Positions 11,616-32,642 of a stretch of DNA of 64,000 nt are shown in pieces (position 1 is the stretch's first letter; each line of letters starts with the position of its first letter). The notes beneath the pieces are model-generated. The model was given only the letters and a program-made list of their open reading frames with translations. It was not told where the DNA came from and ran no database searches. The position numbers and the translations under genes were made by a program. The stretch comes from an uncultured virus (IMG/VR IMGVR_UViG_3300048580_000371) (taxonomy: Duplodnaviria > Heunggongvirae > Uroviricota > Caudoviricetes). The stretch lies in IMG/VR virus record IMGVR_UViG_3300048580_000371; one strand, 5' to 3'.

Positions 11616-11882
11616 ATGACTCGTGTTATAATTATCAATACTGAAGGGCATGTTGTTGCTGCAATAAAATGGTTATGTGCCAATTATAAAAATTGGAGAA
11701 CTGTTACACCTAATTATGATATTAACGATATGCTAAGAACAACGTATACAAAAACAAGTATTGAATGGGATTATCACTTGGCATCACATCATAATTATAA
11801 ATGTTCTGGTGTAAAATTTTATGTTATTTTTGAGTTTGAAAACACTGATGAAGCATTGTTATTTAAAATGAGGTGGGCATGA
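11616..11882 (+). CDS. FKLRW-motif family protein
   Basis: ends FEFENTDEALLFKMRWA. Confidence 0.8.
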   Translation: MTRVIIINTEGHVVAAIKWLCANYKNWRTVTPNYDINDMLRTTYTKTSIEWDYHLASHHNYKCSGVKFYVIFEFENTDEALLFKMRWA

Positions 11883-12163
11883 TGAACGAAATTATTGTTG
11901 TAAAAACGTTGAAAGAATTGTATAATATTTTTTTGTGGTTGTTTGATAACGTTGAAGATTGGGAAACTCTTGAATTTGACAAAGAAAAACATCAACGTGT
12001 AGGATATGGTTATATTAATAAAAATTCAGCACAAGATTGGAAGGATTTTGATTTTAAAAAATATTGGGCTATACAGAAATATAACCAAGATTATGTAGTC
12101 GGTACTATTTTTGTTTTTAAAAATTCAAATGATGCAATGATGTTCAAGTTGAGATGGGGGTGA
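11879..12163 (+). CDS. FKLRW-motif family protein
   Basis: ends DAMMFKLRWG. Confidence 0.8.
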   Translation: MMNEIIVVKTLKELYNIFLWLFDNVEDWETLEFDKEKHQRVGYGYINKNSAQDWKDFDFKKYWAIQKYNQDYVVGTIFVFKNSNDAMMFKLRWG

Positions 12164-12165
12164 TA

Positions 12166-12474
12166 ATGAGAAAATTTAGGTTTATGTTGAAAACCAACAT
12201 TAGGGATCATTATAAAATCATCATCTGGTGCCTGAACAACATCCCAGATGATAACTGGAGAACCATTCGACCATCAGGTGAATTGTTTAGGACAGTTGGG
12301 GATGGAACCTATCTTAACTCAGGTAAGCCACAATATTGGAAGAAAGCTGTTGATGGGAATGAATCAGACCGTATTAGATGGGAGACAAGCATCTTCACAG
12401 AAGAACATGATTTTTTCGCCAGTTATGTTGTGGCTAAAAAATATGCCATGATGTTCAAGTTGAGGTGGACATGA
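12166..12474 (+). CDS. FKLRW-motif family protein
   Basis: ends YAMMFKLRWT. Confidence 0.8.
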   Translation: MRKFRFMLKTNIRDHYKIIIWCLNNIPDDNWRTIRPSGELFRTVGDGTYLNSGKPQYWKKAVDGNESDRIRWETSIFTEEHDFFASYVVAKKYAMMFKLRWT

Positions 12475-12815
12475 TATATTTTTTTAATGAAGATGATCAT
12501 CTTAAATTTTTAGGTTATAATATAGACAGGAATTCATATGACCAGAATTTTAAAATGTTTAATGCTTGGTATGACTACAAGAAAATGATTAAAGTTTTTA
12601 TTGATCAAGATTTATTTTATGAAAAAATAATAGATAAGCATACTTTGAGGGTTTGGTTAACTGCTAATTGTAAATTTGATGTTGTAGTGGCATTAAATAG
12701 ACCAGATATGCATCGTTATCGCAATAACGATAATAATTATGGTTATGGTAATGGGTATCTTTTTTATTTTGATGATACCAATGATGCAATGTTATTTAAA
12801 TTGAGGTGGGCATGA
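12471..12815 (+). CDS. FKLRW-motif family protein
   Basis: ends DAMLFKLRWA. Confidence 0.8.
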   Translation: MIYFFNEDDHLKFLGYNIDRNSYDQNFKMFNAWYDYKKMIKVFIDQDLFYEKIIDKHTLRVWLTANCKFDVVVALNRPDMHRYRNNDNNYGYGNGYLFYFDDTNDAMLFKLRWA

Positions 12816-13006
12816 TAATAGTCAAATATAGACCTAACATGATTGGACGCCATGGTGAACCTGCTGTTTCATATGATCATATTGATAAATTACAAAAATG
12901 GTGCAGTGAACACTGTGAAAATTTTAATGAAGAAGGTGATAGATTTCTTACTTGGAAGTTTATTAATGTCCAAGATGCAATGTTTTTCAAACTAAAATGG
13001 GGATAA
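12812..13006 (+). CDS. FKLRW-motif family protein
   Basis: ends DAMFFKLKWG. Confidence 0.8.
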   Translation: MIIVKYRPNMIGRHGEPAVSYDHIDKLQKWCSEHCENFNEEGDRFLTWKFINVQDAMFFKLKWG

Positions 13007-13069
13007 GTGGCATATTTACCACAAAAAGATAAATAATATCATAACGTTAGTAGAACGAGGTGAAGTAAT

Positions 13070-13297
13070 TTGGTATTTTGGGAAACAGACGTAGTTAAAA
13101 GAACAACAAAGTTACTATCATTATATGAACATGAGGTTAGAATATTAAATCATGATTATGATCCTGTGTTCATTTGGTTGGAAGAACATTGTAAGAGTGG
13201 CTACACCTTTGTAATATGCCCACCACACACTGTATACACTTTTGAAGATAGTCGTGAAGCCATGTTATTTAAATTGCGTTGGGGTGGATTGGAATGA
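13070..13297 (+). CDS. FKLRW-motif family protein
   Basis: ends EAMLFKLRWGGLE; start uncertain. Confidence 0.7.
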   Translation: MVFWETDVVKRTTKLLSLYEHEVRILNHDYDPVFIWLEEHCKSGYTFVICPPHTVYTFEDSREAMLFKLRWGGLE

Positions 13298-13608
13298 TTC
13301 TTGATGATAAAATTGAACAATATACAGAGATACCCAAAGACGAGTTTGACCGTTATAATGTGTTACAATTGATTTCTCGTGGCTGGGATGATTATCCATT
13401 TTGGCGAGATAATTTCCAATTTTTGAAATATTTTCTTTTAAAGCCAGAACGCAAGAGATTATCCAGCACACAATTCAAAAAATTTCTTGAAGGGAAGGAA
13501 CGCTCTATAGTTGCAATAGAGTGTAGACTCGGTGCAAGAGAACGCTCGATTATTATTGGATTCATGAATAAAGCAGATTTAATGCATTTTATGTTGGTGT
13601 TTGGTTAA
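13294..13608 (+). CDS. FKLRW-motif family protein (variant)
   Basis: ends GFMNKADLMHFMLVFG. Confidence 0.7.
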   Translation: MILDDKIEQYTEIPKDEFDRYNVLQLISRGWDDYPFWRDNFQFLKYFLLKPERKRLSSTQFKKFLEGKERSIVAIECRLGARERSIIIGFMNKADLMHFMLVFG

Positions 13609-13615
13609 TCCCCAC

Positions 13616-13644
13616 TTGACAATCTTTTATTTTGGTGTTATTAT
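13616..13644 (+). promoter_or_regulatory. sigma70-like promoter
   Basis: TTGACA-17 bp-TATTAT. Confidence 0.7.
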
Positions 13645-15483: not shown

Positions 15484-15485
15484 TA

Positions 15486-16887: not shown

Positions 16888-17672
16888 CGTAATCCCATTT
16901 TCTTTCTGATTTCTGTTGCCGATATAGCATGGGTTTCATCATCGAAAACTTCTTGTTCAATGACATAACCAACACCACGCCCATAAGTGATTCTAATAAT
17001 ATTGGGAACAACCATGACAGTATATCGTCCTTGATATAATGGGTCCAAATCTCTCTTGATATAATATTCAACCTCTTTGAAATCAAATGGATTTGAATCA
17101 TTCCATCCTTGACAATCACGAATCATAATACACACTTGTCCGGCTTTTTCAATAGCACGTTCAAATAATTTTCTGTGTCCTTCATGCCATGGCTGGAAAC
17201 GCCCCAACATTTGAGCAGTTTCTTTTCTATTATCAAACACAGGTCGTCTTTTATTTTCTAAAATATGTTGGGCAATAAATTCACTCCATAATTCAGCATT
17301 TTTTTCAATAATGCGGAAATCATATTTTTCAGGTTTGACAAACATTGCGTTGGTGTCAGCGAAAAGTCCTTGTTCAATGGTATCAACCCATATTGTCCAA
17401 TCTGCTGAAAAATTGGTTCTCATTTCTTCCAATGGTGCAACAAAATCACAAATAACATAATCAGTTGTTTCACCAGATGCTAATTCTTTCATACGAATGC
17501 TCTGACGAATTCTACCTTCTGGGCTAAAATCCCAATCATTGAATTTCTTTCTAACATCGTCTGCATTAAACCAAGCTATGGTTTTATTATTTTCTTTTAA
17601 TCTTGTGATAATTGCTTGGGCTAACGTTGTCTTTCCAGCCCCGGGCAATCCCATTACTAATATTGTTGTCAT
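16884..17672 (-). CDS. adenylylsulfate-kinase-like P-loop domain fused to cytidylyltransferase-like domain
   Basis: GLPGAGKTTLA, NADDVR, DFSPEGR; GRFQPWHEGH, ISATEIR. Confidence 0.8.
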   Translation of the reverse strand: MTTILVMGLPGAGKTTLAQAIITRLKENNKTIAWFNADDVRKKFNDWDFSPEGRIRQSIRMKELASGETTDYVICDFVAPLEEMRTNFSADWTIWVDTIEQGLFADTNAMFVKPEKYDFRIIEKNAELWSEFIAQHILENKRRPVFDNRKETAQMLGRFQPWHEGHRKLFERAIEKAGQVCIMIRDCQGWNDSNPFDFKEVEYYIKRDLDPLYQGRYTVMVVPNIIRITYGRGVGYVIEQEVFDDETHAISATEIRKKMGLR

Positions 17673-17992
17673 TAATTTCTTCCACCAAATTTTAATTTAA
17701 ATAATACAGCATCATCAGAAATAGTGAATGACGCCTCATTATTGTTTTCAAATTTCCATGGTCCTTTGCAGTTTTCATCACTCCATTTGATTATTTCTTC
17801 TGTGGGATAATCACTATTAAATATAACGTTATATTTAAAACATTTTTTAACATTGACATAAAAATTAACTATTTCTGATAATGTTGGTGCCGCCATTCGT
17901 TGATTAATGTTTTGTTTTTCTTGGTTTGACATATTATTGTATCGTGTTACTTCCCAAAATACACTATTCATTAAAACATTTTTTTCGTTCAA
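17672..17992 (-). CDS. FKLRW-motif family protein
   Basis: WSDENCKGPW...DAVLFKLKFGG. Confidence 0.75.
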   Translation of the reverse strand: MNEKNVLMNSVFWEVTRYNNMSNQEKQNINQRMAAPTLSEIVNFYVNVKKCFKYNVIFNSDYPTEEIIKWSDENCKGPWKFENNNEASFTISDDAVLFKLKFGGRN

Positions 17993-18333
17993 TTCATTTC
18001 TCCATTATCCAATAATTGAAAATCAATACCTTCGTCATATAATTCTTCGGCTTCAGATTTTGTCACAGTTCCCAAAATATCAGCTTCAGCAACCTTTTTT
18101 CCATAATGAACAGCTCGCACTTCATCAGCGAATTTTTCACCAACATATTCATATAATTTGGTGGCACCTTTTTTTGGAATAGCTGGTGCCATCAATGCTT
18201 TTACAATATTAGTATCGCTGCAAGTTGGGCATGAAGTCAAATTGTTTTTTAATATCTTGTCACAAGCATCTGAATTTTGAAACCAAGATTCAAATTCATG
18301 ACCATTTGTGCATTTTAAATTATATTTAATCAT
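17989..18333 (-). CDS. DUF1178 family protein
   Basis: MIKYNLKCxNGHEFESWF, CPTC, KALMAPAI, YVGEKFADEVRAVHYG. Confidence 0.85.
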   Translation of the reverse strand: MIKYNLKCTNGHEFESWFQNSDACDKILKNNLTSCPTCSDTNIVKALMAPAIPKKGATKLYEYVGEKFADEVRAVHYGKKVAEADILGTVTKSEAEELYDEGIDFQLLDNGEMN

Positions 18334-18713
18334 TGGAACCTCATTTTAAACATTATTGCCAAATTCTTGTCTTTAAAACATATGCATGAACTTTCTTCCA
18401 TAACATCAAATATTGGAATTATATAATCTTTGTACATTGAATAATCGTTCAACCATTTCATATAATCATGTTTGTCTTGTTTTAATTCAACTATATAGGG
18501 GAAATGTTCCCTGTATTGCGTTCCTTGTTCTTCAAGCCATTGATTGGCTAATTTTATTTTGGATTTTTCTTGTTCTTCGCATTGTTGTATCCACTCTTTA
18601 AATTCATCATCATAAAAATCCCAATAATCACAATAATAAAAACGCCAATATTTACTATTGCCATCTTTCATTTCTTTGACAAACTTTCTTTCTACTCGCC
18701 TATTATCTGTCAT
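18330..18713 (-). CDS. FKLRW-motif family protein
   Basis: ends CFKDKNLAIMFKMRFQ. Confidence 0.75.
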   Translation of the reverse strand: MTDNRRVERKFVKEMKDGNSKYWRFYYCDYWDFYDDEFKEWIQQCEEQEKSKIKLANQWLEEQGTQYREHFPYIVELKQDKHDYMKWLNDYSMYKDYIIPIFDVMEESSCICFKDKNLAIMFKMRFQ

Positions 18714-19257
18714 TCCCACCCCAAGTTAACCTATATAACATTTGATCTTGTTTGTTGGCGAAATAAATTTTTCCAAATCTGGCATAAACACAACCTTGGC
18801 AAGTTGATTTTATCCAAGAAAACACCGCAGAATAGTCGCTTTGGGAATATTTTTCCACAATTCCAAACTCACCCCTAAAATATTTTAATAAAAATATTTC
18901 ATCGTTTATTGTAAAAAAACGTACACGCTGAGTCCTCCAATATTCAAATTCTTTACCAAACCATTCTGGCAAGTTTGTTCTTGTTGGTGAAATTATTTCT
19001 GTATTTTTATACAATTGTTGTTTTGGGTGATCATATGTTACAGCCATTTTCATTGAAGATGGTTTGTGGAATAATGTCAACGAATAAGTATTGTCTTCTT
19101 TAACTTCCCAGTCTGTGTGTTTATAATATAATGAATCTAAAATTTCATTTGTTAAAACATCCAATGGTGTTCTGGGAAATTTTTCCCAAAATTTCCAATT
19201 GATTTTCCGCCTAACTTTGAAACTATTATCTTTTTCATTTTTTCCAAAAAATAACAT
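18703..19257 (-). CDS. FKLRW-motif family protein (long)
   Basis: ends DQMLYRLTWGG; paralogous to the adjacent gene. Confidence 0.75.
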   Translation of the reverse strand: MLFFGKNEKDNSFKVRRKINWKFWEKFPRTPLDVLTNEILDSLYYKHTDWEVKEDNTYSLTLFHKPSSMKMAVTYDHPKQQLYKNTEIISPTRTNLPEWFGKEFEYWRTQRVRFFTINDEIFLLKYFRGEFGIVEKYSQSDYSAVFSWIKSTCQGCVYARFGKIYFANKQDQMLYRLTWGGNDR

Positions 19258-19874
19258 TATTGACTCCCTTCATTCCCTTCATGTGTCAAACGATAACAAA
19301 TAACATCGTCTTTATTTGAAAGATATAAAATATATCCTGTGTTTGAATTAGTGGTCGTTATATAAGAAACACCAATGCGTTTATTTACCCATTTAAAAAG
19401 TTCTTGTAGTTGGTCAGGTGTTGATTCGTGGTTTTTTTCTATTTTAAAAATAAATTCGTTGTTTAACAGAACATTAATAAATTTTATTTTATTTAGTGTA
19501 AAAAAACTACCACGCTGAACCATCCAACTAAATACCATTATACCAAATATTTTTGACAAATTAATTTTTTCAGGTTTTGATATATTATTACAATATTGTC
19601 TATATCCCCACAATGATGTGTTTGAATAACTAATATCTATCTTAATATCATCTGTTGCCATATATAAATCTTTTGAACCATAAGAATTATAAAAATCACC
19701 CCAAACGTTCCATTTTTCTGGATTGTTAAATATTTGTTCAATCAACTGTTGTTCAACAGTATATTGTTCTTTATTAATTAACAGTTTATTTAACGTCCAT
19801 AAAAATTTGTTCATAAATCCAAATTTTGGCTTGAACTTGTCATCTGTATTTTTGCCGGTTGAAAATAAATTCAT
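19257..19874 (-). CDS. FKLRW-motif family protein (long variant)
   Basis: ends DVICYRLTHEG. Confidence 0.7.
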   Translation of the reverse strand: MNLFSTGKNTDDKFKPKFGFMNKFLWTLNKLLINKEQYTVEQQLIEQIFNNPEKWNVWGDFYNSYGSKDLYMATDDIKIDISYSNTSLWGYRQYCNNISKPEKINLSKIFGIMVFSWMVQRGSFFTLNKIKFINVLLNNEFIFKIEKNHESTPDQLQELFKWVNKRIGVSYITTTNSNTGYILYLSNKDDVICYRLTHEGNEGSQ

Positions 19875-23828: not shown

Positions 23829-23883
23829 ACTATTCCCCTTTCAAAATTAACTATAATATGGAATTTTGGATATTGCAATAAAA

Positions 23884-24153
23884 TTATGGTTCAGAGCATG
23901 GAAGAACTAATTTAAACATAATAAGTTGGTGTCGTTCAGAAAGGGAAAATCTATCATAATGAACTACTTTTCTGTCAATTACTTTTGAACTACTTTTAAT
24001 CCACGCCCAACGCCCTTTAACATTATCAAAAAAATCATATGTGGTTTGTTCAAAACAAGTCAAATGAACGTCTATGGAAATCCAATCTTTTATTTCAATT
24101 GGTTCTATTGGAATTGACCATCTTCTATCTATTGGGTTATATAATCGTGGCAT
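23884..24153 (-). CDS. FKLRW-motif family protein (variant)
   Basis: ends QLIMFKLVLP. Confidence 0.6.
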   Translation of the reverse strand: MPRLYNPIDRRWSIPIEPIEIKDWISIDVHLTCFEQTTYDFFDNVKGRWAWIKSSSKVIDRKVVHYDRFSLSERHQLIMFKLVLPCSEP

Positions 24154-24314
24154 AATCCTTTCATATCCTCTGGGTGTAATATTCCATCTTTTCTGAGATC
24201 GTCATATAGCCCAATATTGATATTGTCGGAAAATGTTCTTGGGGATACTTTTTTGCTTATTGGAAAATAAATATTTGGCGATACTTCATTTAGATAATCT
24301 TTAAATGATTTCAT
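24129..24314 (-). CDS. small late protein with CTS-like N-terminus
   Basis: MKSFKDYLNE; GATAAATA 24336-24343; AGGAG RBS. Confidence 0.65.
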   Translation of the reverse strand: MKSFKDYLNEVSPNIYFPISKKVSPRTFSDNINIGLYDDLRKDGILHPEDMKGLCHDYITQ

Positions 24315-24347
24315 TTTAAATCTCCTATCTTGAAATATTTATCATTA

Positions 24348-24680
24348 TTATGATATTGGTTGGACCCATTTTAATTTAAATTGTAAAGCATCTTCTTTAT
24401 TTTCAAAACAAATATATGTTACTTCATATCCAAAATAATTATGAATAAACCTAATTCTATGTCCTTTTAAATTAAAATTTTCACACATTAGTGTTATTAA
24501 TGTTGGGGCTGTATCCTTAATATAATCAATTAAATTATTTATCCAATATGAATTATCTAAATTTAAATTAACTTTGTATTTGAATTTGTCTAATATAATA
24601 TAGTTTCTAATTTCATATTGGGTTTTCTTTCGCAATATAGTATCATATTTTTTCTTTTCTTCCCAAGAAAGTGTCATCAT
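24348..24680 (-). CDS. FKLRW-motif family protein
   Basis: DALQFKLKWV. Confidence 0.75.
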   Translation of the reverse strand: MMTLSWEEKKKYDTILRKKTQYEIRNYIILDKFKYKVNLNLDNSYWINNLIDYIKDTAPTLITLMCENFNLKGHRIRFIHNYFGYEVTYICFENKEDALQFKLKWVQPIS

Positions 24681-24976
24681 ATTATCCATCTCAATTTGAA
24701 CAATATTGCGTCTTGGGAATTTTTAAAATAAAAATTAAACCCAAATGTTCCCCATAAATCCTGACAATGTTCGTCTAACCAATCAGCTACTGGACCATTA
24801 CCTAATGAATCACTGTTCCATTCATAAATTACTTCATTCTTTTCCCATCTTCCCCAAGAATTTGGTTTTGTTAGTGATGCTGAGACGATATAATGAAATT
24901 GTTCAAACGTTGTTTCATCAATTGATAACAGGTCATTACCTTCTTGTATATAAATTCTTATAAATGATTTACTCAT
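24677..24976 (-). CDS. FKLRW-motif family protein
   Basis: DAILFKLRWII. Confidence 0.75.
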   Translation of the reverse strand: MSKSFIRIYIQEGNDLLSIDETTFEQFHYIVSASLTKPNSWGRWEKNEVIYEWNSDSLGNGPVADWLDEHCQDLWGTFGFNFYFKNSQDAILFKLRWII

Positions 24977-25218
24977 CCCCACCTCAACTTGAAAAACATA
25001 AAATCTTTGGAATTTTTAAATGAAATTTTAGTTATTATGTCACATTCATTATAAGAATAATTAAAATGTGTTAGGTTAATATTATCACTCACCCAATCTC
25101 TTATTTCAAATTTCAAAATATATGGTTCAATATAATGTTTATCCTCAAATTCATATTTGTGCCAACCGATATAAAAATTATCCTTTATATTTTCAACTAT
25201 TTTATTAAATAATGCCAT
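24973..25218 (-). CDS. FKLRW-motif family protein
   Basis: DFMFFKLRWG. Confidence 0.75.
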   Translation of the reverse strand: MALFNKIVENIKDNFYIGWHKYEFEDKHYIEPYILKFEIRDWVSDNINLTHFNYSYNECDIITKISFKNSKDFMFFKLRWG

Positions 25219-25220
25219 TA

Positions 25221-25493
25221 TCATCCCCACCTCAATTTGAAAAACATTTCGTCTTTTGGATTTTCAAAAATAAAATCTACACCATGAATAAAAAGATATT
25301 CAGAATATTCATCAAATTCACGCATACTAATATTAATGTTGTGTTCTTCACACCATTGTTTATATGTTTCAATAAGGTCAATATCTATTTGTTTTAAATT
25401 TAGATTTTCTGTATGTTTGATTATTTCATCTATGTTTCCATCTGTGCCAGTTTTGATATGCACATTGACCAAGACATCTGTATAAAATTTCAT
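25221..25493 (-). CDS. FKLRW-motif family protein
   Basis: DEMFFKLRWG. Confidence 0.75.
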   Translation of the reverse strand: MKFYTDVLVNVHIKTGTDGNIDEIIKHTENLNLKQIDIDLIETYKQWCEEHNINISMREFDEYSEYLFIHGVDFIFENPKDEMFFKLRWG

Positions 25494-25672
25494 TTATGAT
25501 CTCCCATTTGTTCAAATCGTTCCCATATCTTTTTGCGTTCTTCTATAGTTAAAGTTTGCCAATTGGTTATTTCATCATGGGTTCGATAACAACCACCACA
25601 ATATTTGTCATCTCCAGATCCTTCATAAACACAATATCCCCAGCAAGGCGATTTTAAATAAGTATTTTCCAT
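25490..25672 (-). CDS. DUF1289 family (Cys-rich) protein
   Basis: SPCWGYC...CGGCYRTHDEITNW. Confidence 0.8.
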   Translation of the reverse strand: MENTYLKSPCWGYCVYEGSGDDKYCGGCYRTHDEITNWQTLTIEERKKIWERFEQMGDHK

Positions 25673-25673
25673 T

Positions 25674-25889
25674 CTAATTAGTCACCATCTCCATTATTAT
25701 GACATCAATGCCATCCAATTTTTCACCCAATTCGTCATCTGTCATTTGGAGTTTTTCATTTAATTCAGGGTCAGCTCGTTGAAGAACAACGTTAGCTCCA
25801 TATTTTTCTAATTCTCGCGCAATTAATACAGCCATACGGGTTTTCTTGGTATGTCCACTTCCAGTTATTGTAATTTGAACTTTTGACAT
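25674..25889 (-). CDS. hypothetical protein (degenerate P-loop-like start)
   Basis: ITITGSGHTKKT; GGAGG RBS. Confidence 0.6.
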   Translation of the reverse strand: MSKVQITITGSGHTKKTRMAVLIARELEKYGANVVLQRADPELNEKLQMTDDELGEKLDGIDVIIMEMVTN

Positions 25890-25974
25890 TTTTATTCCTC
25901 CATTTAAAAGTTATTATTAATAATATATCAAGTTACCAAATAATAAAATTTATTTTTTAATTGTCATAAAAAAT

Positions 25975-26217
25975 TCATGCCCACCATAACTTGAACATCA
26001 TTGCATCATTGGAATTTTCAAAGTGTAGCACATATATTTCACTCCATGCACCAGAATTTAATGGTTCACCCAAAGAAACTTCCCCTTTACAATTCTTTTT
26101 TACCCAATATTGAATTATATCAAATTGCTCAAAAAAAACACTGGTGTCAAATTTGGCGGCTTTTAATTTATCAAACAGGTTTATTTCCACTTCTATCATA
26201 TGGGTATTTATCACCAA
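25975..26217 (-). CDS. FKLRW-motif family protein
   Basis: DAMMFKLWWA. Confidence 0.75.
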   Translation of the reverse strand: MVINTHMIEVEINLFDKLKAAKFDTSVFFEQFDIIQYWVKKNCKGEVSLGEPLNSGAWSEIYVLHFENSNDAMMFKLWWA

Positions 26218-26597
26218 CGCATTTTAAATAACATCATATCTTCTTTTCGTTTAAAAGAAAATATGTAAATTATGTTTTTGTATTCTGGGACACCAAAATA
26301 TATTCCATTAATTAATAATGTTGATAGATATGTTTTTCTTGACATATTTACTAATGGACCTATTTGAAAAGATAAATTATTATTATCATCATCTAACACA
26401 ATATCAGCCTCAAAATCATTCTCAACTTCAATCTTATGGTAACGGAAACGTTTCTTCCCAAACGTCTTGAAACACCATTTAATCATCATATCTTTTTTGT
26501 GTGTGTTATTTTCAGCATCGATTGTAAGCTGGTGTTCCAGTGGTTCGAGGTCGAGGTTGATTAGTGGATAAACGCTTTCCCAAGATTTCTTTTTCAT
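26211..26597 (-). CDS. FKLRW-motif family protein
   Basis: DMMLFKMRW. Confidence 0.75.
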   Translation of the reverse strand: MKKKSWESVYPLINLDLEPLEHQLTIDAENNTHKKDMMIKWCFKTFGKKRFRYHKIEVENDFEADIVLDDDNNNLSFQIGPLVNMSRKTYLSTLLINGIYFGVPEYKNIIYIFSFKRKEDMMLFKMRW

Positions 26598-26599
26598 GT

Positions 26600-26896
26600 C
26601 TATTCCCTTCCACTTAAATTTTCGTCATACTTTCCCCATGTAAGAAAAAAATACATGAATTGTTCAGGGTTGTCAACTACAATCGTGTAGTGACGTTTTG
26701 TGTTGGCGATTCTTCTGGATGTTGTTGTTTTGGCATCTTGGCGAATATCTTCTTCAACATCCCAACGAGTCAGTATTGTGTTTTTAACATTATAATCAAT
26801 CGTCCACACACTATAGAGGATTTTATGTTCTTTCAACCAAGAAAATAATCTCAAACTTTCTTTTGTTATATGATGGAATTTTAAATACCTGTTCAT
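26600..26896 (-). CDS. FKLRW-motif family protein (variant)
   Basis: QFMYFFLTWG. Confidence 0.7.
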   Translation of the reverse strand: MNRYLKFHHITKESLRLFSWLKEHKILYSVWTIDYNVKNTILTRWDVEEDIRQDAKTTTSRRIANTKRHYTIVVDNPEQFMYFFLTWGKYDENLSGRE

Positions 26897-27168
26897 CCAC
26901 CACCCCATCTTAATTTGAATTTGAAGGCATCTTGTTTGTTCATAAACCCACTAATATTACAACCAACCATCCAATCTTGTTCCAGATTACCTTCACACCA
27001 TTTAGCCATTTCAAATAAATTTTGTTCTGTGGTATCATTGTTGATATTATATTTGTATAATGATAATTCAGTTGTCAAGAATTTGTCTTTTAAAATGACA
27101 ATGCTATAAAAATCCCCACTTTCCCTAATTCTTGGGAACCCATCATCATCTATAAAATCCCAATACAT
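26893..27168 (-). CDS. FKLRW-motif family protein
   Basis: DAFKFKLRWGGG. Confidence 0.75.
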   Translation of the reverse strand: MYWDFIDDDGFPRIRESGDFYSIVILKDKFLTTELSLYKYNINNDTTEQNLFEMAKWCEGNLEQDWMVGCNISGFMNKQDAFKFKLRWGGG

Positions 27169-27444
27169 TCAGCACCACCTTAATTTGAAAATCATTGCGT
27201 CATTTGAATCTTTAAAATTAATATCAACAACGTCATCATATAAATCAAAATATTTTTCACTTTGTATATCTGTTAATTCAAGCCAACCAACTTCATCAAC
27301 TGTTGCATTATTTTCTTTAGCATACTTACGTAACGCTATTATGTTTTTATCAGTTCCAATAAACAATATCCTGAATATCAAATCTGATATTTGAATACAA
27401 GCATAACCAAATGATGGACTGGTTGGTGACATTTTTTCAATCAT
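27169..27444 (-). CDS. FKLRW-motif family protein
   Basis: DAMIFKLRWC; start placed at MIEKM. Confidence 0.7.
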   Translation of the reverse strand: MIEKMSPTSPSFGYACIQISDLIFRILFIGTDKNIIALRKYAKENNATVDEVGWLELTDIQSEKYFDLYDDVVDINFKDSNDAMIFKLRWC

Positions 27445-27679
27445 TGTTTTTTCTTCTAATATAAATTTGAAATTCTTCAAATGAAAGATTTCTTGGAATA
27501 ACTGTACCTTGTTCATCACAAGCATCCACAATTTCTTTTTGTTTGTCTGTTAAATCAGCATATTCAATAATTCTTGGTGTTTTTGATTTACTAATTTTAC
27601 CACGAACTTTTGGTTTTTTAACCACTGGTTCTTCTGTTTTTTCTTGTGCTGTTTCATCAACTATTTCTTTGCATCTCAT
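27437..27679 (-). CDS. small protein, CTS-like start, paralogue of 41860-42069
   Basis: MRCKEIVDE...PRIIEYADLTDKQKEIVD. Confidence 0.65.
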   Translation of the reverse strand: MRCKEIVDETAQEKTEEPVVKKPKVRGKISKSKTPRIIEYADLTDKQKEIVDACDEQGTVIPRNLSFEEFQIYIRRKNND

Positions 27680-27730
27680 ATTTCTATCCTCTTTTTGTTT
27701 ATCATAACTCAACATTTTAAATTAGTCAAT

Positions 27731-28351
27731 TTATTTGGCTGTCCAAGCTAACCTAAAGATTAATTCTTGTTCTGGAAGTATCAACACACGCCCATAATAT
27801 TTATCTATCCACTGAAATTGCATCAATGACCTACTTGTTGAATTAAAATTATTATCTTTAAAATTGATGATTGGTTTAAAATTATTATTGGGCATTTTCA
27901 AAGTATGGCGACACCATTCATAAAAATCATCAATTTCTTCTTTTGTGTCACGAATTATTGTCACCATTATAAAATCACCATAGTTTGTATACTTATGGTC
28001 AACTGGATATTGCTCATCAAGTTGTTTAATTTTTTCCATAAGTTCTACTGCTGTTTCTTTATCTTTACAATCAATATTGAAATGAATATATTCAACTATA
28101 TCATAATCAGAATATTTATGAAACCCATTTGTATTATGGTTGTTTCTATCACAATATTGTACACTCAAATTACTAATATATTGTAATAAAATTTTTTCCC
28201 TTATGTAATCAGGATAGCACACGACGCACACCCTCCACCATGTTTTTTTATGTGTCATGTGTGTAAAACCACCAAATTCATCACCACCAGGACCATAATA
28301 ATATTGCATACGAATATTATTTCTATCAGGACCAGCATTTAATCTACCCAT
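27731..28351 (-). CDS. FKLRW-motif family protein (two-domain)
   Basis: ends QELIFRLAWTAK. Confidence 0.7.
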   Translation of the reverse strand: MGRLNAGPDRNNIRMQYYYGPGGDEFGGFTHMTHKKTWWRVCVVCYPDYIREKILLQYISNLSVQYCDRNNHNTNGFHKYSDYDIVEYIHFNIDCKDKETAVELMEKIKQLDEQYPVDHKYTNYGDFIMVTIIRDTKEEIDDFYEWCRHTLKMPNNNFKPIINFKDNNFNSTSRSLMQFQWIDKYYGRVLILPEQELIFRLAWTAK

Positions 28352-28644
28352 TATGCCCACCTCATTTTGAATAACAATACATCAGATGAATTTTCAAACC
28401 CCCACTGTACTTTATCATTATCATCAGACCAAGAAACACAAGCAACATGCCCAGCCATATTTTTCTCAATCCAACCCCAAAAAAAATCCTTGTCATCATT
28501 GGTGATGAATGGGCGTCTGGAAGATTCAAAATATTTACACATTTTATATGGGGTATCGTCCAAAAAATTAACAAGAAACTTTTTCCAATTAAGGTCTTCA
28601 GGACGTTCTTTTTCCATCTCAACTAAAAATTGTTTTTTATTCAT
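28351..28644 (-). CDS. FKLRW-motif family protein
   Basis: DVLLFKMRWA. Confidence 0.75.
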   Translation of the reverse strand: MNKKQFLVEMEKERPEDLNWKKFLVNFLDDTPYKMCKYFESSRRPFITNDDKDFFWGWIEKNMAGHVACVSWSDDNDKVQWGFENSSDVLLFKMRWA

Positions 28645-28964
28645 CCCCACCTCAATTTAAACATTATTGCATCTTGGGATTTTTCAAAAGCGAAAAATAT
28701 ATGATCAAACCCACCAATGCCATTGATTTCAAATTCCCCATTGGAATTAAACCATCCTCGTTGCCAACATGAATCATATAATCCAGAACAATTTCTTTTG
28801 CACCAAGAATTAGCATTTTCCAGTCTATCATGTGGATCAGAATTTTGTCCATAAGATAATTCAACGATATTCTTACTATTATAATAATACTGTTGTATCG
28901 TTCTTGCACCATAATGCTTTTTAAATTCATTTATGGTTTTCTTTCGTCCAAAAATCCAAAACAT
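28641..28964 (-). CDS. FKLRW-motif family protein
   Basis: DAIMFKLRWG. Confidence 0.75.
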   Translation of the reverse strand: MFWIFGRKKTINEFKKHYGARTIQQYYYNSKNIVELSYGQNSDPHDRLENANSWCKRNCSGLYDSCWQRGWFNSNGEFEINGIGGFDHIFFAFEKSQDAIMFKLRWG

Positions 28965-28967
28965 CCA

Positions 28968-29162
28968 TTACCCCCAAATTAACTTGAATAGCATTATGAA
29001 ATTTTCTTCAACATTGTAAAATGTGAAATCAATATACTCTTTATCATGGGTGTAATTAAATTCCCAATCATGGATATTTAAATGAATATTACAAAATTTA
29101 AATATTTTTCTGTTGTCTTCTGGATAATTTTTATTTTTAACCCTAACACAAATGGTTTTCAT
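28968..29162 (-). CDS. FKLRW-motif family protein
   Basis: FIMLFKLIWG. Confidence 0.75.
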   Translation of the reverse strand: MKTICVRVKNKNYPEDNRKIFKFCNIHLNIHDWEFNYTHDKEYIDFTFYNVEENFIMLFKLIWG

Positions 29163-29163
29163 G

Positions 29164-29403
29164 TTAGCCCCAAATTAACTTGAATAACATGGCATCTTGG
29201 GAATTTTCAAATGCAATGAAATCTGTATCAAATTGGATGTTTTTCCCTTTGCATTGTTTGAATAACCAAGAATCTAATTTTTCATATTCTATGCTATTAA
29301 ATTGAACAATATGAACATCTTTCCAAGATTTATCTTGGCTTTGAAAAAACCACATGGTGCGTTTGTTTTTTTGGCAATATTCACAATATTGTTTAAGGTT
29401 CAT
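29164..29403 (-). CDS. FKLRW-motif family protein
   Basis: DAMLFKLIWG. Confidence 0.75.
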   Translation of the reverse strand: MNLKQYCEYCQKNKRTMWFFQSQDKSWKDVHIVQFNSIEYEKLDSWLFKQCKGKNIQFDTDFIAFENSQDAMLFKLIWG

Positions 29404-29701
29404 TTAATAATCCCCGCATTTTAAATAATAATGCTTGTTGTTTTGTTCCAAAATGAAAATTGTATTCCAATACTTCTTCTTTTTGTGTTTTAAAAATTTC
29501 AATACTTATACAACCACCATTTATTAAATTTTCATATGCTGTTTTTAATAATTGGAAATATTGTTCAGTTAGATTAAAACAAGGGAAGTATGATTTTATC
29601 TCATTTCTATCAAGCTTTGTGTGCTTTGACATAATTAACATACAAATGCCATATATTTGGATTTGAAAAGGATTTGATACTTCCATTTTTAAAATATACA
29701 T
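29393..29701 (-). CDS. FKLRW-motif family protein
   Basis: QALLFKMRG. Confidence 0.7.
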   Translation of the reverse strand: MYILKMEVSNPFQIQIYGICMLIMSKHTKLDRNEIKSYFPCFNLTEQYFQLLKTAYENLINGGCISIEIFKTQKEEVLEYNFHFGTKQQALLFKMRGLLNEP

Positions 29702-30021
29702 TGTTGGTCACCCAATTTGAAAAACATTGCAGATTGTTTGTCTTCAAAAAATAAATTAACACAATTACTACCAAATGTTTCTATAGTCAACGAATCAATT
29801 TTTTTATCTTTACACCATTTGATAAACTGAATTAATATTCCTTTTGTAGCCCAAACTAAATCTGAGTTTAAATAATCCTCTAAAGTATTTATATTAATTC
29901 TCACTATTGATGTATCAGTGTAAAATTTTGGTGATTGACGATATGTTTCAAATGTTAACATTAACAATTCAAAGTAAGGTGTTGGTATATAATGTTTAAA
30001 TTTGAGAGTAACTTTTATCAT
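29689..30021 (-). CDS. FKLRW-motif family protein
   Basis: SAMFFKLG. Confidence 0.7.
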   Translation of the reverse strand: MIKVTLKFKHYIPTPYFELLMLTFETYRQSPKFYTDTSIVRININTLEDYLNSDLVWATKGILIQFIKWCKDKKIDSLTIETFGSNCVNLFFEDKQSAMFFKLGDQQCIF

Positions 30022-30302
30022 TTCCATACCATTAAAAAATGTAATAGATGAGATTTTTCTTTGAAATGAATTTCTATATATGTTGGGAGAAATGAGTTTT
30101 CAACCAACCACTGTTCTTCTTTAAATGGGGCTATATTTTTATCCAACCACAGTGTCAGCACTGTATAATAAGTATAATAAAATGGTGAGCTGTGTTCATC
30201 TATCAATGATACCCCTGCTGTATAATTATATCCAAAGGTTTTCACCATTGATGTTGTTTCTCTGTTGGATATGTCTAAATCTAATCCGGATAATTTTGTC
30301 AT
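30018..30302 (-). CDS. FKLRW-motif family protein (variant)
   Basis: HLLHFLMVWK. Confidence 0.7.
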   Translation of the reverse strand: MTKLSGLDLDISNRETTSMVKTFGYNYTAGVSLIDEHSSPFYYTYYTVLTLWLDKNIAPFKEEQWLVENSFLPTYIEIHFKEKSHLLHFLMVWK

Positions 30303-30532
30303 CTGATAATTTCTCCAAATTTTAATTTAACCATCATCGCAATAGTTTTGTCTTTTACAAATATGGTACCAAACTCAAACCCCCAATCATTAGTCATTAA
30401 ATCAAAATTATCTAATCTCCCAAAATTTACAGATAACCAATGTAATAATTCCCTTATTGTGTGTGGGTTATCTTGACTTTGGATATTAAACGTATATGGA
30501 TATAAACAACTTGAATCAAGTTCATACTTCAT
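30299..30532 (-). CDS. FKLRW-motif family protein
   Basis: IAMMVKLKFG; start at MKYEL. Confidence 0.7.
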   Translation of the reverse strand: MKYELDSSCLYPYTFNIQSQDNPHTIRELLHWLSVNFGRLDNFDLMTNDWGFEFGTIFVKDKTIAMMVKLKFGEIIR

Positions 30533-30710
30533 TAATCCAATTCTCTTTGAATGTTTGATAATCTGATTTATTTTTAAAATACAATGCCCATCCATCATTA
30601 ATAGCACGATATTCAATTGGGTAGCATTGTACTTCAAGTGAATGTTTATGAAGCCATCCTGCAACTTTTTCAATTTCAACATCAAACAATTTAACTTTAA
30701 AAGTCTTCAT
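30522..30710 (-). CDS. FKLRW-motif family protein (variant)
   Basis: YFKNKSDYQTFKENW; AAGGAG RBS. Confidence 0.7.
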   Translation of the reverse strand: MKTFKVKLFDVEIEKVAGWLHKHSLEVQCYPIEYRAINDGWALYFKNKSDYQTFKENWINEV

Positions 30711-30722
30711 TTTTAGTCTCCT

Positions 30723-30920
30723 TTATCGTTTCCATTTAAGTGTGAAGTGTATTGCTACTTTTGGGTCTTTAAAAGTGTATAATCTATAACATAACGAATC
30801 CCATTCTATATTAGGATAATGGGTTTGTATCCAATTTTCAATTTGATTGTGTCTATAATAAGACCATCCCCCCATATTAAATCTATCATATTCAACAGGC
30901 AAATCAATCGTGTAAGTCAT
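30723..30920 (-). CDS. FKLRW-motif family protein
   Basis: VAIHFTLKWKR. Confidence 0.7.
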   Translation of the reverse strand: MTYTIDLPVEYDRFNMGGWSYYRHNQIENWIQTHYPNIEWDSLCYRLYTFKDPKVAIHFTLKWKR

Positions 30921-30927
30921 AATTCCT

Positions 30928-31323
30928 CTAATATTTTAATTTAAACAGCATAGCATCTTGTTTTTGGCAAAAATCTATTCTAATATTATTTATTAAATTC
31001 AATTCTAAATCTTTATTTAATGTCCAATTGTCAATTGATACTATCGTTGGTTCAATGTTGCGTATTCCAGAAATCCAAATATTATAATATCCTTTGGTAT
31101 TATCATTCAACCAATCTATAAAATCTTGTTTAACAACGAAATTGATATTATCATTAAAATTCAAAACTTTCAATATTTTTTCATCATTTTCTAAAATTAT
31201 TGAAAGTTCTGTTGGATGCCCAAAAACTAATAAACGATTTGTGTACATCAATTGTTCTTGTTTTCGTAACACAAGTTTCATATAATTTTCAACATCCATT
31301 AATAATTCATTTTTAAAAAACAT
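30928..31323 (-). CDS. FKLRW-motif family protein
   Basis: DAMLFKLKY. Confidence 0.7.
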   Translation of the reverse strand: MFFKNELLMDVENYMKLVLRKQEQLMYTNRLLVFGHPTELSIILENDEKILKVLNFNDNINFVVKQDFIDWLNDNTKGYYNIWISGIRNIEPTIVSIDNWTLNKDLELNLINNIRIDFCQKQDAMLFKLKY

Positions 31324-31523
31324 TATATCCACCTCAATCTAAATAACACAACATTAATTTATTTTTTATATAAAAATCCATTAACACTTGAAATAATATA
31401 GCATCATTGGTGTTTTCAAAAAGTATAACACAATCAGGACGCAAATTTATAATGTCAAAACACCATTTCCCTTTACAATTTTCATAATGTTGTAACATCA
31501 TTTCTTGACAAATATATTTTCAT
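31323..31523 (-). pseudogene. decayed FKLRW-family cassette(s) with orphan 3' motif
   Basis: Frameshifted ...NCKGKWC...FENTNDAILF; separate stop-bounded VVLFRLRWI* at 31323-31355. Confidence 0.55.
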
Positions 31524-31759
31524 TTCACCCACCTCAATTTAAATAACATCTCATGGTTAGTATTTGTGAATGAAAAATCTGCACCTGTTGGACCAATATC
31601 CCAAGTTTCATATTCATTCCCAAAAGTTACTTTGCACCATGTGGCAATTTCATTAATAAAATTAATAACTTCTTGCATATCTTCATGGTTTCTTCCACCT
31701 TTATAACCAACAATATAATGATGTGGTTGTTCTGTTGGTCTAACTACTAACATTTGCAT
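31520..31759 (-). CDS. FKLRW-motif family protein
   Basis: HEMLFKLRWVK. Confidence 0.75.
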   Translation of the reverse strand: MQMLVVRPTEQPHHYIVGYKGGRNHEDMQEVINFINEIATWCKVTFGNEYETWDIGPTGADFSFTNTNHEMLFKLRWVK

Positions 31760-31946
31760 ACCTCAATTTGAATAATATTGCATCACTTGGATTTTCAAAA
31801 TTAAAACATCCTCTAAGAGGATATTGTTTCCTTTCAAATGAATATTTAATATTTTGTTGATCTAATATTTGTTGAAATCGTTCCATATCACGCTTAAACC
31901 AAAATAACCCAGAACCATCAACATATAAAATTTCAATTACAGTCAT
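31740..31946 (-). CDS. FKLRW-motif family protein
   Basis: FENPSDAILFKLRY. Confidence 0.75.
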   Translation of the reverse strand: MTVIEILYVDGSGLFWFKRDMERFQQILDQQNIKYSFERKQYPLRGCFNFENPSDAILFKLRYANVSS

Positions 31947-32359
31947 AATTGATAATCATCCTCATACCATTTTTTACAATATTCAATAGCATTTATATTC
32001 GAATTCATACAATGGTCAATTTTTTTATACCAAAACATTTTAAATTTAGCTGCATCTGATTTATTATAAAAAAACATCAATATATCAATAATATGTACAT
32101 TTTCGTCCATATACCCATAACTAATATAATAATTAATATCTTGTTCTCCACACCATTTCATAATGTGTCGAATTTGTGAAAATTCAGTTCGTTCTTCCCA
32201 TGTAATCATACCTATAACATATTTTACCACTGATAATTTATCTAAATAAGACATTTCATGATAAGTGTTATGATCTAAATGCCCCAAAACTGGGACATAA
32301 TCATAATATAATGGGTATTTTGGTGAAAACAATTTAATTGGTTTTAACCTAAATTCCAT
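31943..32359 (-). CDS. FKLRW-motif family protein
   Basis: DAAKFKMFWY with C-terminal extension. Confidence 0.7.
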   Translation of the reverse strand: MEFRLKPIKLFSPKYPLYYDYVPVLGHLDHNTYHEMSYLDKLSVVKYVIGMITWEERTEFSQIRHIMKWCGEQDINYYISYGYMDENVHIIDILMFFYNKSDAAKFKMFWYKKIDHCMNSNINAIEYCKKWYEDDYQL

Positions 32360-32360
32360 T

Positions 32361-32642
32361 TTATCCCCATTTCAATTTGAATAACATTGCATCACTTGGA
32401 TTTTCAAAATAAAAATATGCTGTAAGTTTTTTGCGTGGTGACACTTGCAATTTAATTCCAAATAAGTTAAATCTGTGTCTCCACGCTTCTCCAGATCTGT
32501 CAATGATATTACCTGCTTTATCGATTTGTCCAACATCAGGACCATGACAAGTTTCCCATTTGGTATCATCTACATTTTCAAATAACCAAGTAAAAATTTG
32601 TTCATACTCATTTTTATATTTGTCAAGAGTTACAAGTGTCAA
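32361..32642 (-). CDS. FKLRW-motif family protein
   Basis: FENPSDAMLFKLKWG. Confidence 0.75.
   Translation of the reverse strand: MTLVTLDKYKNEYEQIFTWLFENVDDTKWETCHGPDVGQIDKAGNIIDRSGEAWRHRFNLFGIKLQVSPRKKLTAYFYFENPSDAMLFKLKWG

Follow-up and report, generated by a model that had tools for sequence, protein, structure and literature searches.

The translation of a gene from a Shine-Dalgarno (SD) sequence that resides within its upstream neighbour, combined with an overlap of stop and start codon in an ATGA, is a textbook mechanism. Tandem arrays of paralogues can evolve by unequal crossing-over, and the gene cassettes of integrons are small promoterless genes of a single orientation that are expressed from outside the cassette.

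In gene pairs overlapping as ATGA or TGATG, the downstream gene usually follows an intragenic SD located in the upstream gene, and removal of this SD reduced re-initiation in four of five E. coli pairs, as described in the sections considered here of a study that sets the threshold for a 'strong' SD motif at -8.4 kcal/mol (Huber et al. 2019, PMC6728339). A different type of modularity is found in the PeSLs of T4-type phages, which, in the portion of the work that we draw upon, are non-coding elements of about 100 bp that combine a sigma-70-like promoter with a stem-loop terminator (Arbiol et al. 2010, PMC2839356).

The locus described in this study resembles the intragenic-SD pairs, as far as the considered sections of that work (PMC6728339) portray them, in its co-directional genes, whose stops and starts overlap by 4 or 1 nt, and in an SD-like motif among the final codons of the gene upstream. 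It differs from them in that the putative SD sits in a residue motif common to about 50 paralogues, so that one conserved protein tail forms the standard junction along whole arrays, whose coupling we infer.

A phage protein family with a common C-terminal tail

The window, the whole stretch of 64,000 nucleotides that was analysed, is a section of a large phage genome that is rich in AT and comes from lake water, and it carries about 50 strongly diverged tandem paralogues of one unnamed family of small proteins. A first-pass annotation had noticed a recurring motif at gene ends, and this motif is real. A search with AAATTGAGGTGGG allowing for up to two mismatches returned 23 matches in the window, compared to an average of 3.13 (sd 1.89, maximum 9) in 100 dinucleotide shuffles, none of which reached 23. 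Every match is located at the 3' end of a small ORF, where it reads in frame as F-K-L-R-W-(G/A)-stop, and the eight sites initially named are all among them (11865, 12457 and 12798 on the plus strand; 23291, 24978, 25226, 28356 and 28646 on the minus strand). With a custom HMM, we identified 54 family members among the 998 stop-to-stop ORFs of the window, with the domain at the C-terminus; the family accounts for up to about one third of the ORFs of the window. The range 11868..32380 originally assigned to the feature does contain the family, which also extends beyond it to 6064-6327, 32941-34075, 41189-41479, 48740-50557 and 56506-60146. The arrays and selected members are:

6064..6327, plus strand: lone family member with the tail FRLKFA, without AGG and without a nearby downstream start
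11616..13297, plus strand: array of six family genes, from HMM and ORF list (11616-11882, 11879-12163, 12166-12474, 12471-12815, 12812-13006, 13070-13297)
12791..12815, plus strand: type example of the tail, TTA TTT AAA TTG AGG TGG GCA TGA
17672..19874, minus strand: group of four family genes (17672-17992, 18330-18713, 18703-19257, 19257-19874)
17989-18333, minus strand: non-family DUF1178 gene, starting in an ATGA overlap after the family tail ATG AGG TTC CAA TGA
22607..34075, minus strand: main array of 29 family ORFs by HMM and a few non-family genes
25490-25672: non-family DUF1289 gene inside the main array
48740..50557, plus strand: four more family members by HMM, outside the range first assigned
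56506..60146, plus strand: nine more family members by HMM, likewise outside that range

The main array is located downstream of a gene of the IMPDH/GMP-reductase family (34296-35393). In the array at 11616..13297, the first gene has its own GGAGG upstream and three of the five junctions consist of an ATGA overlap following an (A/T)TG AGG TGG tail. In the type example, the ATG at 12812 overlaps with the TGA stop of gene 12471-12815 and is preceded by GAGGTG at a distance of 3 nt and by its GAGG core at 5 nt. Tails with AGG are also found in the array at 56506..60146, in genes 59295-59552 and 59542-59829.

Members of the family have in common a C-terminal domain some 45 residues long, which is modelled as a helix followed by two strands and a second helix, with the latter carrying the terminal motif DAxxFKL(R/K/T)WG. 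In the AlphaFold model, which is of moderate confidence (mean pLDDT 74), the tail is contained within a helix. The N-terminal parts are very diverse and the identity between members outside the tail is about 25%. Relatives in contigs of 27-57% GC retain the tail residues with different codons, which places the conservation at the level of the protein, and the conserved item is thus, first of all, a protein feature. The family is confined to phages and comprises 2,712 cluster representatives in public data, which also include two-domain fusions of neighbouring family genes. In Pfam searches, none of ten window members scored above the cut-off and no significant family was found for 119 members of an extended set (A3), with PLATZ (0.0029) and RF3_C (0.007) as lone weak matches, and searches of PHROGs returned no match for any of the same ten and 119 proteins. 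A Foldseek comparison of the family model (pLDDT 74) with the PDB contained no match at E<=0.001, the best hits in BFVD (E 0.2) were uncharacterised phage proteins, and the best match in a wide VIA-align search was a split beta-alpha-beta protein with a Z of 4.1.

For a description of the junctions, we anchored 48 family tails on their Trp codon. Their stop codons are TGA in 28, TAA in 16 and TAG in four cases, and the next ATG is found 2 nt past the Trp codon, resulting in an ATGA overlap, in 11 and within 9 nt in 26 of the 48 tails. With gene starts set by a crude rule, the 45 gene pairs with a family gene upstream overlap by 4 nt in 15, by 1 nt in four and by other lengths in eight cases, and nine pairs are separated by gaps of 0-10 nt. 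Overlaps of 4 nt are about equally frequent behind family (15/45) and non-family genes (14/52), and this packing is thus a genome-wide property here rather than one specific to the family. The conserved tail, initially estimated at about 30 bp, extends at the DNA level over about 45-58 nt with 60-91% identity, and no two tails have more than 25 consecutive nt in common.

Codon choice and the proposed Shine-Dalgarno reading of the tail

The first-pass annotation had proposed that the codons for Arg and Trp in the tail double as SD of the next gene, with Arg repeatedly encoded by AGG or AGA. As a general description of the tails this holds in part, with AGG in just 14 of the 48 anchored tails and the Lys codon AAA at the same position in 15. 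Where the residue is Arg, the choice of its codon is striking, with AGG in 14 of 20 cases compared to 2.4 expected from a background of about 12%. The suggested comparison of synonymous sites in the tail with genome usage places the codons for Asp, Ala, Lys and Gly at background frequency (p = 0.19 to 0.61); the Leu of the tail is encoded by TTG in 19 of 39 cases (10.5 expected). The codon preceding AGG or AGA ends in G in 16 of 18 tails (TTG 12, ATG 4) and thereby generates GAGG or GAGA. AGG is also associated with the proximity of the next gene, being present in 12 of the 26 tails in which a start follows within 9 nt of the Trp codon and in two of the 22 others (Fisher p=0.009), and the same applies to the Arg residue itself (15/26 vs 5/22, p=0.02), where these and all other p-values are naive since paralogues are non-independent samples.

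In AGG tails, GAGGTG is located 5-12 nt ahead of the ATG. Non-family genes contain motifs of the AAGGAG/GGAGG type before their starts, and the genome thus uses canonical SDs. The predicted duplex energies average -9.6 kcal/mol for starts behind AGG tails (n=12), -6.0 kcal/mol for other genes (n=89) and -2.6 kcal/mol for random positions, as calculated with a generic anti-SD, which may differ from that of the host. Ten of the 12 AGG-tail starts are predicted with this generic anti-SD at -10.3 kcal/mol or stronger, beyond the value that defines a 'strong' motif in the considered sections of the work on intragenic-SD pairs (PMC6728339).

The pattern recurs in 112 de-duplicated tails from 32 other, unrelated loci. 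Arg is present in 40 of them and encoded by AGG in 21 (3.9 expected from the codon usage of those loci, with all long six-frame ORFs, uncurated, as background), and AGG is found in 17 of 56 tails with a close start compared to four of 56 without (p=0.003). If only tails with Arg are considered, the link between AGG and closeness in these loci is not significant (18/33 vs 4/14, p=0.12). Among 126 tails of related lineages, Thr occupies the position of Arg in 36 and Val in 16; with either residue found there in many lineages, the strong SD reading is not family-wide, and lineages with Thr or Val retain just the weaker G-run of Trp-Gly(-stop).

The resemblance of the tail to an SD could in principle be incidental, with similar DNA reflecting protein conservation and shared ancestry, and AGG being either inherited or gene-converted. 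The proteins do form a clear family, in which Trp has a single codon and Phe and Lys have two, and AGG and the ATGA overlap could move together in one short tract. Since recombination at tails does occur (see below), gene conversion is possible. Inheritance is difficult to reconcile with the background usage at neighbouring synonymous sites next to the pronounced excess of AGG, and with the distribution of its carriers: on the basis of the 40 residues ahead of the tail, the nearest relative of an AGG member also contains AGG in one of 14 cases (28% expected), and the carriers thus do not form a clade. AGG members differ in the codon that follows Trp (GCA in four, GGA in four and six others), which means that no stretch of 15 nt or more was homogenised, and adjacent tails are no closer in sequence than distant ones (similarity 0.622 vs 0.608, p=0.29). 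With the AGG excess and its association with close starts also reappearing in the 32 unrelated loci, we consider this explanation quite unlikely.

As another alternative, AGG might be retained for its rarity, or for acting as an SD-like pause site inside the gene and near the stop, so that the ribosome is slowed while the upstream protein folds or is released, without any relation to the next gene. AGG is indeed rare in the genome, where it accounts for 10-19% of Arg codons (48/480 in non-family genes and 28/149 in family gene bodies), and it is located two codons ahead of the stop in most of its carriers. A pause acting on the upstream protein should be independent of a close start, and the dependence observed in the window and in the other loci thus counts against it. 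The G-ending codon before AGG fits base pairing and not codon rarity, and this proposal appears highly improbable.

We thus return to the explanation that we regard as probable, in which the protein tail doubles as SD of the next gene and is subject to occasional recombination. Its SD part is supported by the statistics of codon choice, close starts and replication described above. Overlaps of 4 or 1 nt pack genes throughout the genome, and the ribosome-binding site of a downstream gene consequently has to be encoded within the final codons of its upstream neighbour. The terminal Leu-Arg-Trp-Gly of the family, if written as TTG AGG TGG GGN, yields a GAGGTG(G) that is complementary to the common 16S 3' end and precedes the next ATG by 5 to 12 nt. 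According to this proposal, selection for this second reading would have fixed the rare AGG and the G-ending codon before it specifically where a start follows closely, and it has probably also biased the residue towards Arg over Lys or Thr where the start is near. The next gene may then be translated either through re-initiation by the ribosome that has just terminated or through a new initiation event at the tail, which would couple translation along the arrays. The coupling mechanism itself is ordinary and already known. The tail would offer a clean natural case of a single stretch that holds two codes, one for a conserved protein end and one for the signal by which a neighbouring gene is translated, with an effect at the level of the codon and possibly of the residue that is replicated in unrelated phage lineages.

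Gain and loss of genes between tails

Tail-to-tail loss or gain of a gene has occurred at least once in nature. In one contig of a related lake strain, position 24972 is joined to 25221, which skips 248 nt and thus exactly one gene unit, an event documented by a single 296-nt contig with a depth of 4.5. The features involved are:

24973..25220, minus strand: gene unit missing from the contig of the related strain (83-residue member 24973-25224)
24973..24987, minus strand: 15-nt block of tail and stop/start (coding strand TTGAGGTGGGGATGA) that forms the homology at the indel junction
25221..25235, minus strand: second exact copy of the 15-nt block

If the 11 nt upstream are included, the copies agree in 26 of 27 nt. 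Short-homology recombination or slippage between two tails could have led to the loss or addition of a whole gene because all members end alike, and such an event would leave the frames of the neighbours, the ATGA junction and the SD all intact.

The initial annotation had gone further in proposing that the tails allow genes to be shuffled as integrase-free cassettes. In this form, the tail would above all be a recombination site, with genes mobile within and between phages in a PeSL-like manner. Such a role would agree with the exact one-gene indel and its 15-nt tail junction, with the tails of 45-58 nt and 60-91% identity that flank every member, with the N-terminal diversity and the two-domain fusions, and with the precedent of the PeSLs in the portion of that work used here (Arbiol et al. 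2010, PMC2839356). Mapping of indel breakpoints in relatives provides a mixed picture: the described event is the one clean tail-to-tail case, and two whole-gene indels between relatives in other lineages, L117/L128 and L004/L005, are not bounded by two tails. Among the eight listed joints one is clean, and the remainder either fall within a gene from outside the family or have sides of 20-21 nt. The similarities of adjacent and distant tails given above contain no sign of concerted evolution, exact homology is limited to 25 nt and the tail is part of a folded protein whose residues are conserved across 27-57% GC. The window contains four terminator-like sites compared to 8.0 in shuffles, with none recurring at tails. 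Promoter-like matches number 148, with 124.7 expected for AT-rich sequence, and are not patterned around the tails, which thus lack a promoter-plus-terminator pair. We therefore hold a primary role as recombination site to be unlikely, and exchange between tails seems to arise now and then as a by-product of the tandem arrangement and not from a dedicated cassette system.

In relation to the PeSLs, as they are presented in the consulted portion of PMC2839356, the tails share the property of a conserved expression signal that flanks numerous small genes without assigned function in the variable parts of a large phage genome, where recombination between two copies deletes or inserts a whole gene and preserves expressibility, as in the one event found here. 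Unlike these elements, the tail is coding, carries a translation signal only and shares at most 25 nt exactly, without a promoter/terminator pair. Arrays that evolve by unequal crossing-over likewise contain head-to-tail paralogues with a conserved segment at which whole units are gained or lost, whereas the members of the present family are extremely diverged and display no homogenisation, from which it follows that exchange must be rare.

Similar to integron cassettes, the genes of the family are small, promoterless, of one orientation and expressed from outside. An assignment as integron cassettes was rejected, as Pfam scans of the larger ORFs contained no integrase family and the repeat resides inside the reading frame.

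A stronger version of the dual reading, which we offer tentatively and regard as rather doubtful, would view the tail as a true dual-coding module, in which the need for an SD dictates both AGG and the choice of Arg over Lys, Thr or Val at the end of a protein domain, and where large phages swap ORFans at tail blocks. If correct, the tails would correspond, at the level of translation, to the PeSL cassettes that act at the level of transcription, ORFans could be added, lost and swapped at tail blocks without breaking frames or expression, and the build-up of arrays of dozens of genes in certain large phage lineages could be explained. If tail-to-tail exchange turned out to be frequent, ORFan arrays of large phages could grow and turn over by simple means.

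Start codons within the tail

Annotators of freshwater large-phage genomes will encounter members of this large, unnamed and phage-only family, and gene callers should beware of false GTG starts within the tail. The starts reading MGM or MDM, which the first-pass annotation had called spurious and rightly explained by the tail, are artefacts of mechanical ORF listing, with ten ORFs opening at the GTG contained in AGGTGG, 3-9 nt before the ATG.

The family and its distribution

A search of the window for the motif AAATTGAGGTGGG with up to two mismatches identified 23 matches, whereas shuffled sequence gave 3.13 on average and never more than 9. The eight places that the first-pass annotation had named as examples of a recurrent gene end are all found among them. 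When read in frame, every match constitutes the end of a small ORF terminating in ...D-A-x-x-F-K-L-R-W-(G/A)-stop. Using an HMM constructed from the window's own tails on stop-to-stop ORFs of at least 30 amino acids, the domain was detected at the C-terminus of 54 out of 998 ORFs.

Family genes detected by the HMM in the window
11.6-13.3 kb, + strand: six genes
17.7-19.9 kb, - strand: four genes
22.6-34.1 kb, - strand: 29 genes
48.7-50.6 kb, + strand: four genes
56.5-60.1 kb, + strand: nine genes
elsewhere: two single genes

The family accounts for about one in three of the 152 ORFs retained by a crude gene caller. The motif and the gene ends are as had been described, but the range of 11868..32380 ascribed to them was too narrow, as the family extends beyond it. 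The MGM and MDM starts had rightly been considered spurious: ten ORFs start with MGM, MDM, MGI or MDI at the GTG inside AGGTGG, and in these the ATG located a few bases past this GTG is likely the true start. A candidate frameshift at 49766-49836 was dropped; the member found there has its own ATG and the gap carries promoter-like sequence. This 72-nt gap (49763-49836), which follows the uncoupled member 49521-49763, contains the elements TTGACA-17-TATTAT, and members of the arrays that have no start shortly behind them may represent operon ends.

Within their last 50 residues, family members share only 16-50% identity with a reference member, and conservation is seen in the tail, in an F-x-F strand and at a Trp situated some 30-35 residues upstream of the tail. 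An AlphaFold model based on 119 sequences (mean pLDDT 74, pTM 0.55) displays in its C-terminal part a helix (36-49), two strands (55-57 and 61-63) and a second helix (67-77). Searches of Pfam and PHROG assigned no family, fold searches of the model against solved and viral structures returned no match at E<=0.001 (best Z 4.1), and the Atlas contains only hypothetical phage clusters. When 1.84 billion representatives were searched with a profile, 2,712 proteins were retrieved at E<=0.001, three of them at E<=1e-10, and the source names of relatives are either 'hypothetical protein' or absent. Pattern scans located family arrays in 16 loci from IMG/VR and 37 from metagenomes, covering 27-57% GC, and no relative matching DA[MI][LMI]FKLxW was found in bacterial and archaeal genomes. 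Relatives keep the tail residues with other codons, such as CTC ACG TGG, which excludes a purely DNA-level element, and we infer a common C-terminal domain combined with N-terminal parts that vary widely. The public relatives P0001, P0011, P0023, P0042, P0059 and P0102 contain two or three family domains, as if array neighbours had been fused with loss of the stop/start junction. The N-terminal part of the member at 23286-23828 shows two hydrophobic stretches which, judged by eye from the sequence, are membrane-spanning in appearance.

At the DNA level, blastn searches (setting 'distant') of 50,697 phage records yielded no match for the regions 5000-10000 and 22900-29500, and neither did tblastn searches of 50,697 phage records with two family members (E<=0.01 and E<=1). 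Parts of the array are present in eleven lake-water metagenome runs, and one of these, in which every sampled word occurs, may be the run from which the window derives. For the protein encoded at 23286-23825, two matching stretches but no loci were obtained in viral contigs, and none in metagenome contigs. The 143-aa ORF at 33378-33806 and the GMP-reductase-family gene have relatives only at <=57% identity, and the 83 loci of those relatives (~1.0 Mb) contain no family member.

Tail codons and the start of the following gene

AAGGAG/GGAGG-type motifs precede the starts of non-family genes, and the phage therefore relies on canonical Shine-Dalgarno (SD) pairing. As background for the codon choice in the tails, AGG encodes 48 of the 480 Arg residues of non-family genes, and 28 of the 149 in family bodies.

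Synonymous codon choice in the tails of the window
Arg: AGG 14, AGA 4, CGT 2; AGG expected 2.4; p=2e-12 (naive chi-square)
Leu: TTG 19/39; expected 10.5; p=0.04
Asp: as background; p=0.45
Ala: as background; p=0.36
Lys: as background; p=0.61
Gly: as background; p=0.19

The codon before AGG or AGA is TTG in 12, ATG in four and TTA in two cases, and before other tail codons it is TTA in 14, TTG in seven, ATG in five and CTN in four. The Phe located four codons before the Trp is the sole other synonymous site of the tail that departs from background (TTC in 19 of 42 vs 9.1 expected, p=2e-4), perhaps because long runs of T ahead of the AAA are avoided.

The preference for AGG is related to the position of the next start. 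AGG is found in 12 of 26 tails with an ATG at <=9 nt from the Trp codon, compared to two of the 22 remaining tails (Fisher p=0.009), and the Arg residue itself in 15 of the 26 close tails vs 5 of the 22 others (p=0.02). In uncoupled tails, AAA encoding Lys is the commonest codon (6/12). With respect to ancestry, the members with AGG show no greater similarity among themselves over the 40 residues preceding the tail (mean identity 0.249 vs 0.259 and 0.264). Their nearest relative likewise carries AGG in only 1 out of 14 cases, and the codon 3' of the Trp differs among them. With a generic anti-SD sequence that may not be the one of the host, the predicted duplex at starts behind AGG tails has a mean energy of -9.6 kcal/mol (10 of 12 at -10.3 or stronger), compared to -5.6 kcal/mol for close starts behind other tails, -6.0 kcal/mol for other genes (n=89) and -2.6 kcal/mol for random positions. 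Overlaps of 4 nt are about as common behind non-family (14/52) as behind family genes (15/45), so that tight gene spacing with SDs embedded in the preceding gene characterises the genome as a whole and not the family.

The same features were found in other loci. Among 126 tails with downstream sequence from 39 non-redundant loci, the residue preceding the Trp is Arg in 47, Thr in 36, Val in 16 and Lys in 14 cases. Removal of near-identical tails left 112 from 32 loci, with Arg in 40, of which 21 are encoded by AGG vs 3.9 expected from the long ORFs of those loci, and with AGG in 17 of 56 close tails compared to 4 of 56 that are not close (p=0.003). When confined to Arg tails of other loci, the link between AGG and closeness is not significant (18/33 vs 4/14, p=0.12). 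Lineages in other contigs such as L001, L121, L125 and L126 (41-47% GC) repeat the pattern (T/C)TG AGG TGG nnn TGA with the ATG placed in the stop or adjoining it. Many lineages contain Thr or Val instead, leaving only the G-run of Trp-Gly-stop, as in the TGG GGA TGA of locus L103. This locus (8.6 kb, 28% GC) is the densest of the arrays found with 15 family tails, almost all reading FKLVWG and TGG GGA T(G/A)A; 11 of these tails have the next ATG 2-11 nt past the Trp codon, and in this lineage the G-run of Trp-Gly-stop is used instead of AGG.

The initial proposal that the tail doubles as SD of the next gene is, at the level of sequence, borne out by tests of codon choice, position, ancestry and recurrence in other loci, and this putative role appears well supported. 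Against it stand the non-significant link among Arg tails of other loci, the lineages with Thr or Val, and the similar frequency of 4-nt overlaps behind non-family genes. In Huber et al., 2019 (PMC6728339), SD motifs inside the upstream gene are described to precede the downstream gene of ATGA/TGATG pairs, with a variable, often large contribution to re-initiation, and the mechanism proposed for the tail is, on that account, a case of established intragenic-SD re-initiation. The searched literature contains no description of the family or its tail motif. New are the family itself and the apparent double role that the tail has throughout it, whereas the mechanism is already known. The nearest precedent for the tail as a gene-flanking expression signal is the PeSL of T4-type phages, where ORFan genes are flanked by conserved expression signals through which they are gained and lost (Arbiol et al., 2010, PMC2839356). 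In contrast to the PeSL, which is a transcription signal, the tail is coding, short and a putative translation signal, and it lacks the promoter and stem-loop by which the PeSL is defined.

Proposed recombination between tails

The tails had also been proposed to provide homology for recombination, by which genes could be shuffled as integrase-free cassettes. Contigs of four lake runs were compared with the region 15000-34900, which is informative only for those parts of the array with contig cover. One clean joint was found in a contig of run X3 (296 nt, depth 4.5, ~92% identical in both flanks), which connects 24972 to 25221 and thereby skips 248 nt; 15 nt at the joint can be assigned to either side. 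In the window sequence, the skipped stretch is exactly the unit of the gene 24973-25224, and the indel is bordered by the block TTGAGGTGGGGATGA as it occurs in two successive tails, the two copies sharing 26 of 27 nt if the preceding bases are counted. In the joined form, putative SD and ATGA start of the next gene are supplied by the upstream tail. This one-gene indel represents either a deletion in the X3 strain or an insertion in the window.

Other candidates were rejected: six further joints in 16961-17530 are located inside a non-family gene, a joint 26234->31463 with sides of only 20-21 nt was taken as motif-to-motif match of another paralogue, and high-depth records of '30942->19091' with only ~18 nt matching per side were left out. 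Between related loci, a one-gene indel in L117/L128 has its borders at gene ends, the left one behind a non-family gene, and a 1.2-kb indel in L004/L005 is found before the single family gene and contains two opposite-strand ORFs. The IMG/VR pairs L008/L009, L011/L013, L012/L014 and L005/L006 are uninformative because they are identical or nearly so. Adjacent tails are no more alike than distant ones, both in nucleotide identity (0.622 vs 0.608, p=0.29) and in same-residue codon identity (0.575 vs 0.571), and the longest exact run common to any two tails is 25 nt. The cassette proposal has thus found one good natural example in the X3 joint, but the remaining evidence is neutral or negative and speaks against a system dedicated to shuffling.

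Gene content of the window

The window has a GC content of ~28-40% and its larger ORFs encode phage-type replication and nucleotide functions. An IMPDH/GMP-reductase-family gene and several homing-endonuclease-like genes are also present.

Larger genes of the window
395-1588, + strand: NAD-dependent DNA ligase, apparently split, adenylation and OB domains
3585-4385, + strand: BRCT domain of the apparently split NAD-dependent DNA ligase
9062-9847: Thg1-like guanylyltransferase
37890-39131: T4 Rnl1-type RNA ligase
39356-40624: class I tRNA-synthetase-like ORF, 422 aa
21559-22626, 52510-53475 and 61306-62472: homing-endonuclease-like genes; NUMOD3 repeats in two, GIY-YIG in the third
62630-64000: family B DNA polymerase gene, running off the window end

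Between the ligase halves, a 462-aa ORF on the opposite strand (1557-2945) contains DUF723 and treble-clef zinc-finger domains, and a second ORF of this type is found at 42542-43756. One of the homing-endonuclease-like genes adjoins the gene of the polymerase, whose best tblastn matches all come from large phages, with 48% for Sinorhizobium phage Phosso and Agrobacterium phage Atu_ph07 and 45% for PA5oct-like phages. The density of tRNA-related genes (Thg1-like, tRNA-synthetase-like and RNA ligase) is unusually high. The region at ~6.4-8.9 kb contains few convincing ORFs, a tRNA-Val (8020-8090) and possibly small RNA genes. It also holds two 79-nt direct repeats (6635-6713 and 7226-7304) that are 80% alike, each with a promoter-like TTG(A/C)(C/A)A ... 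TATGAT stretch.
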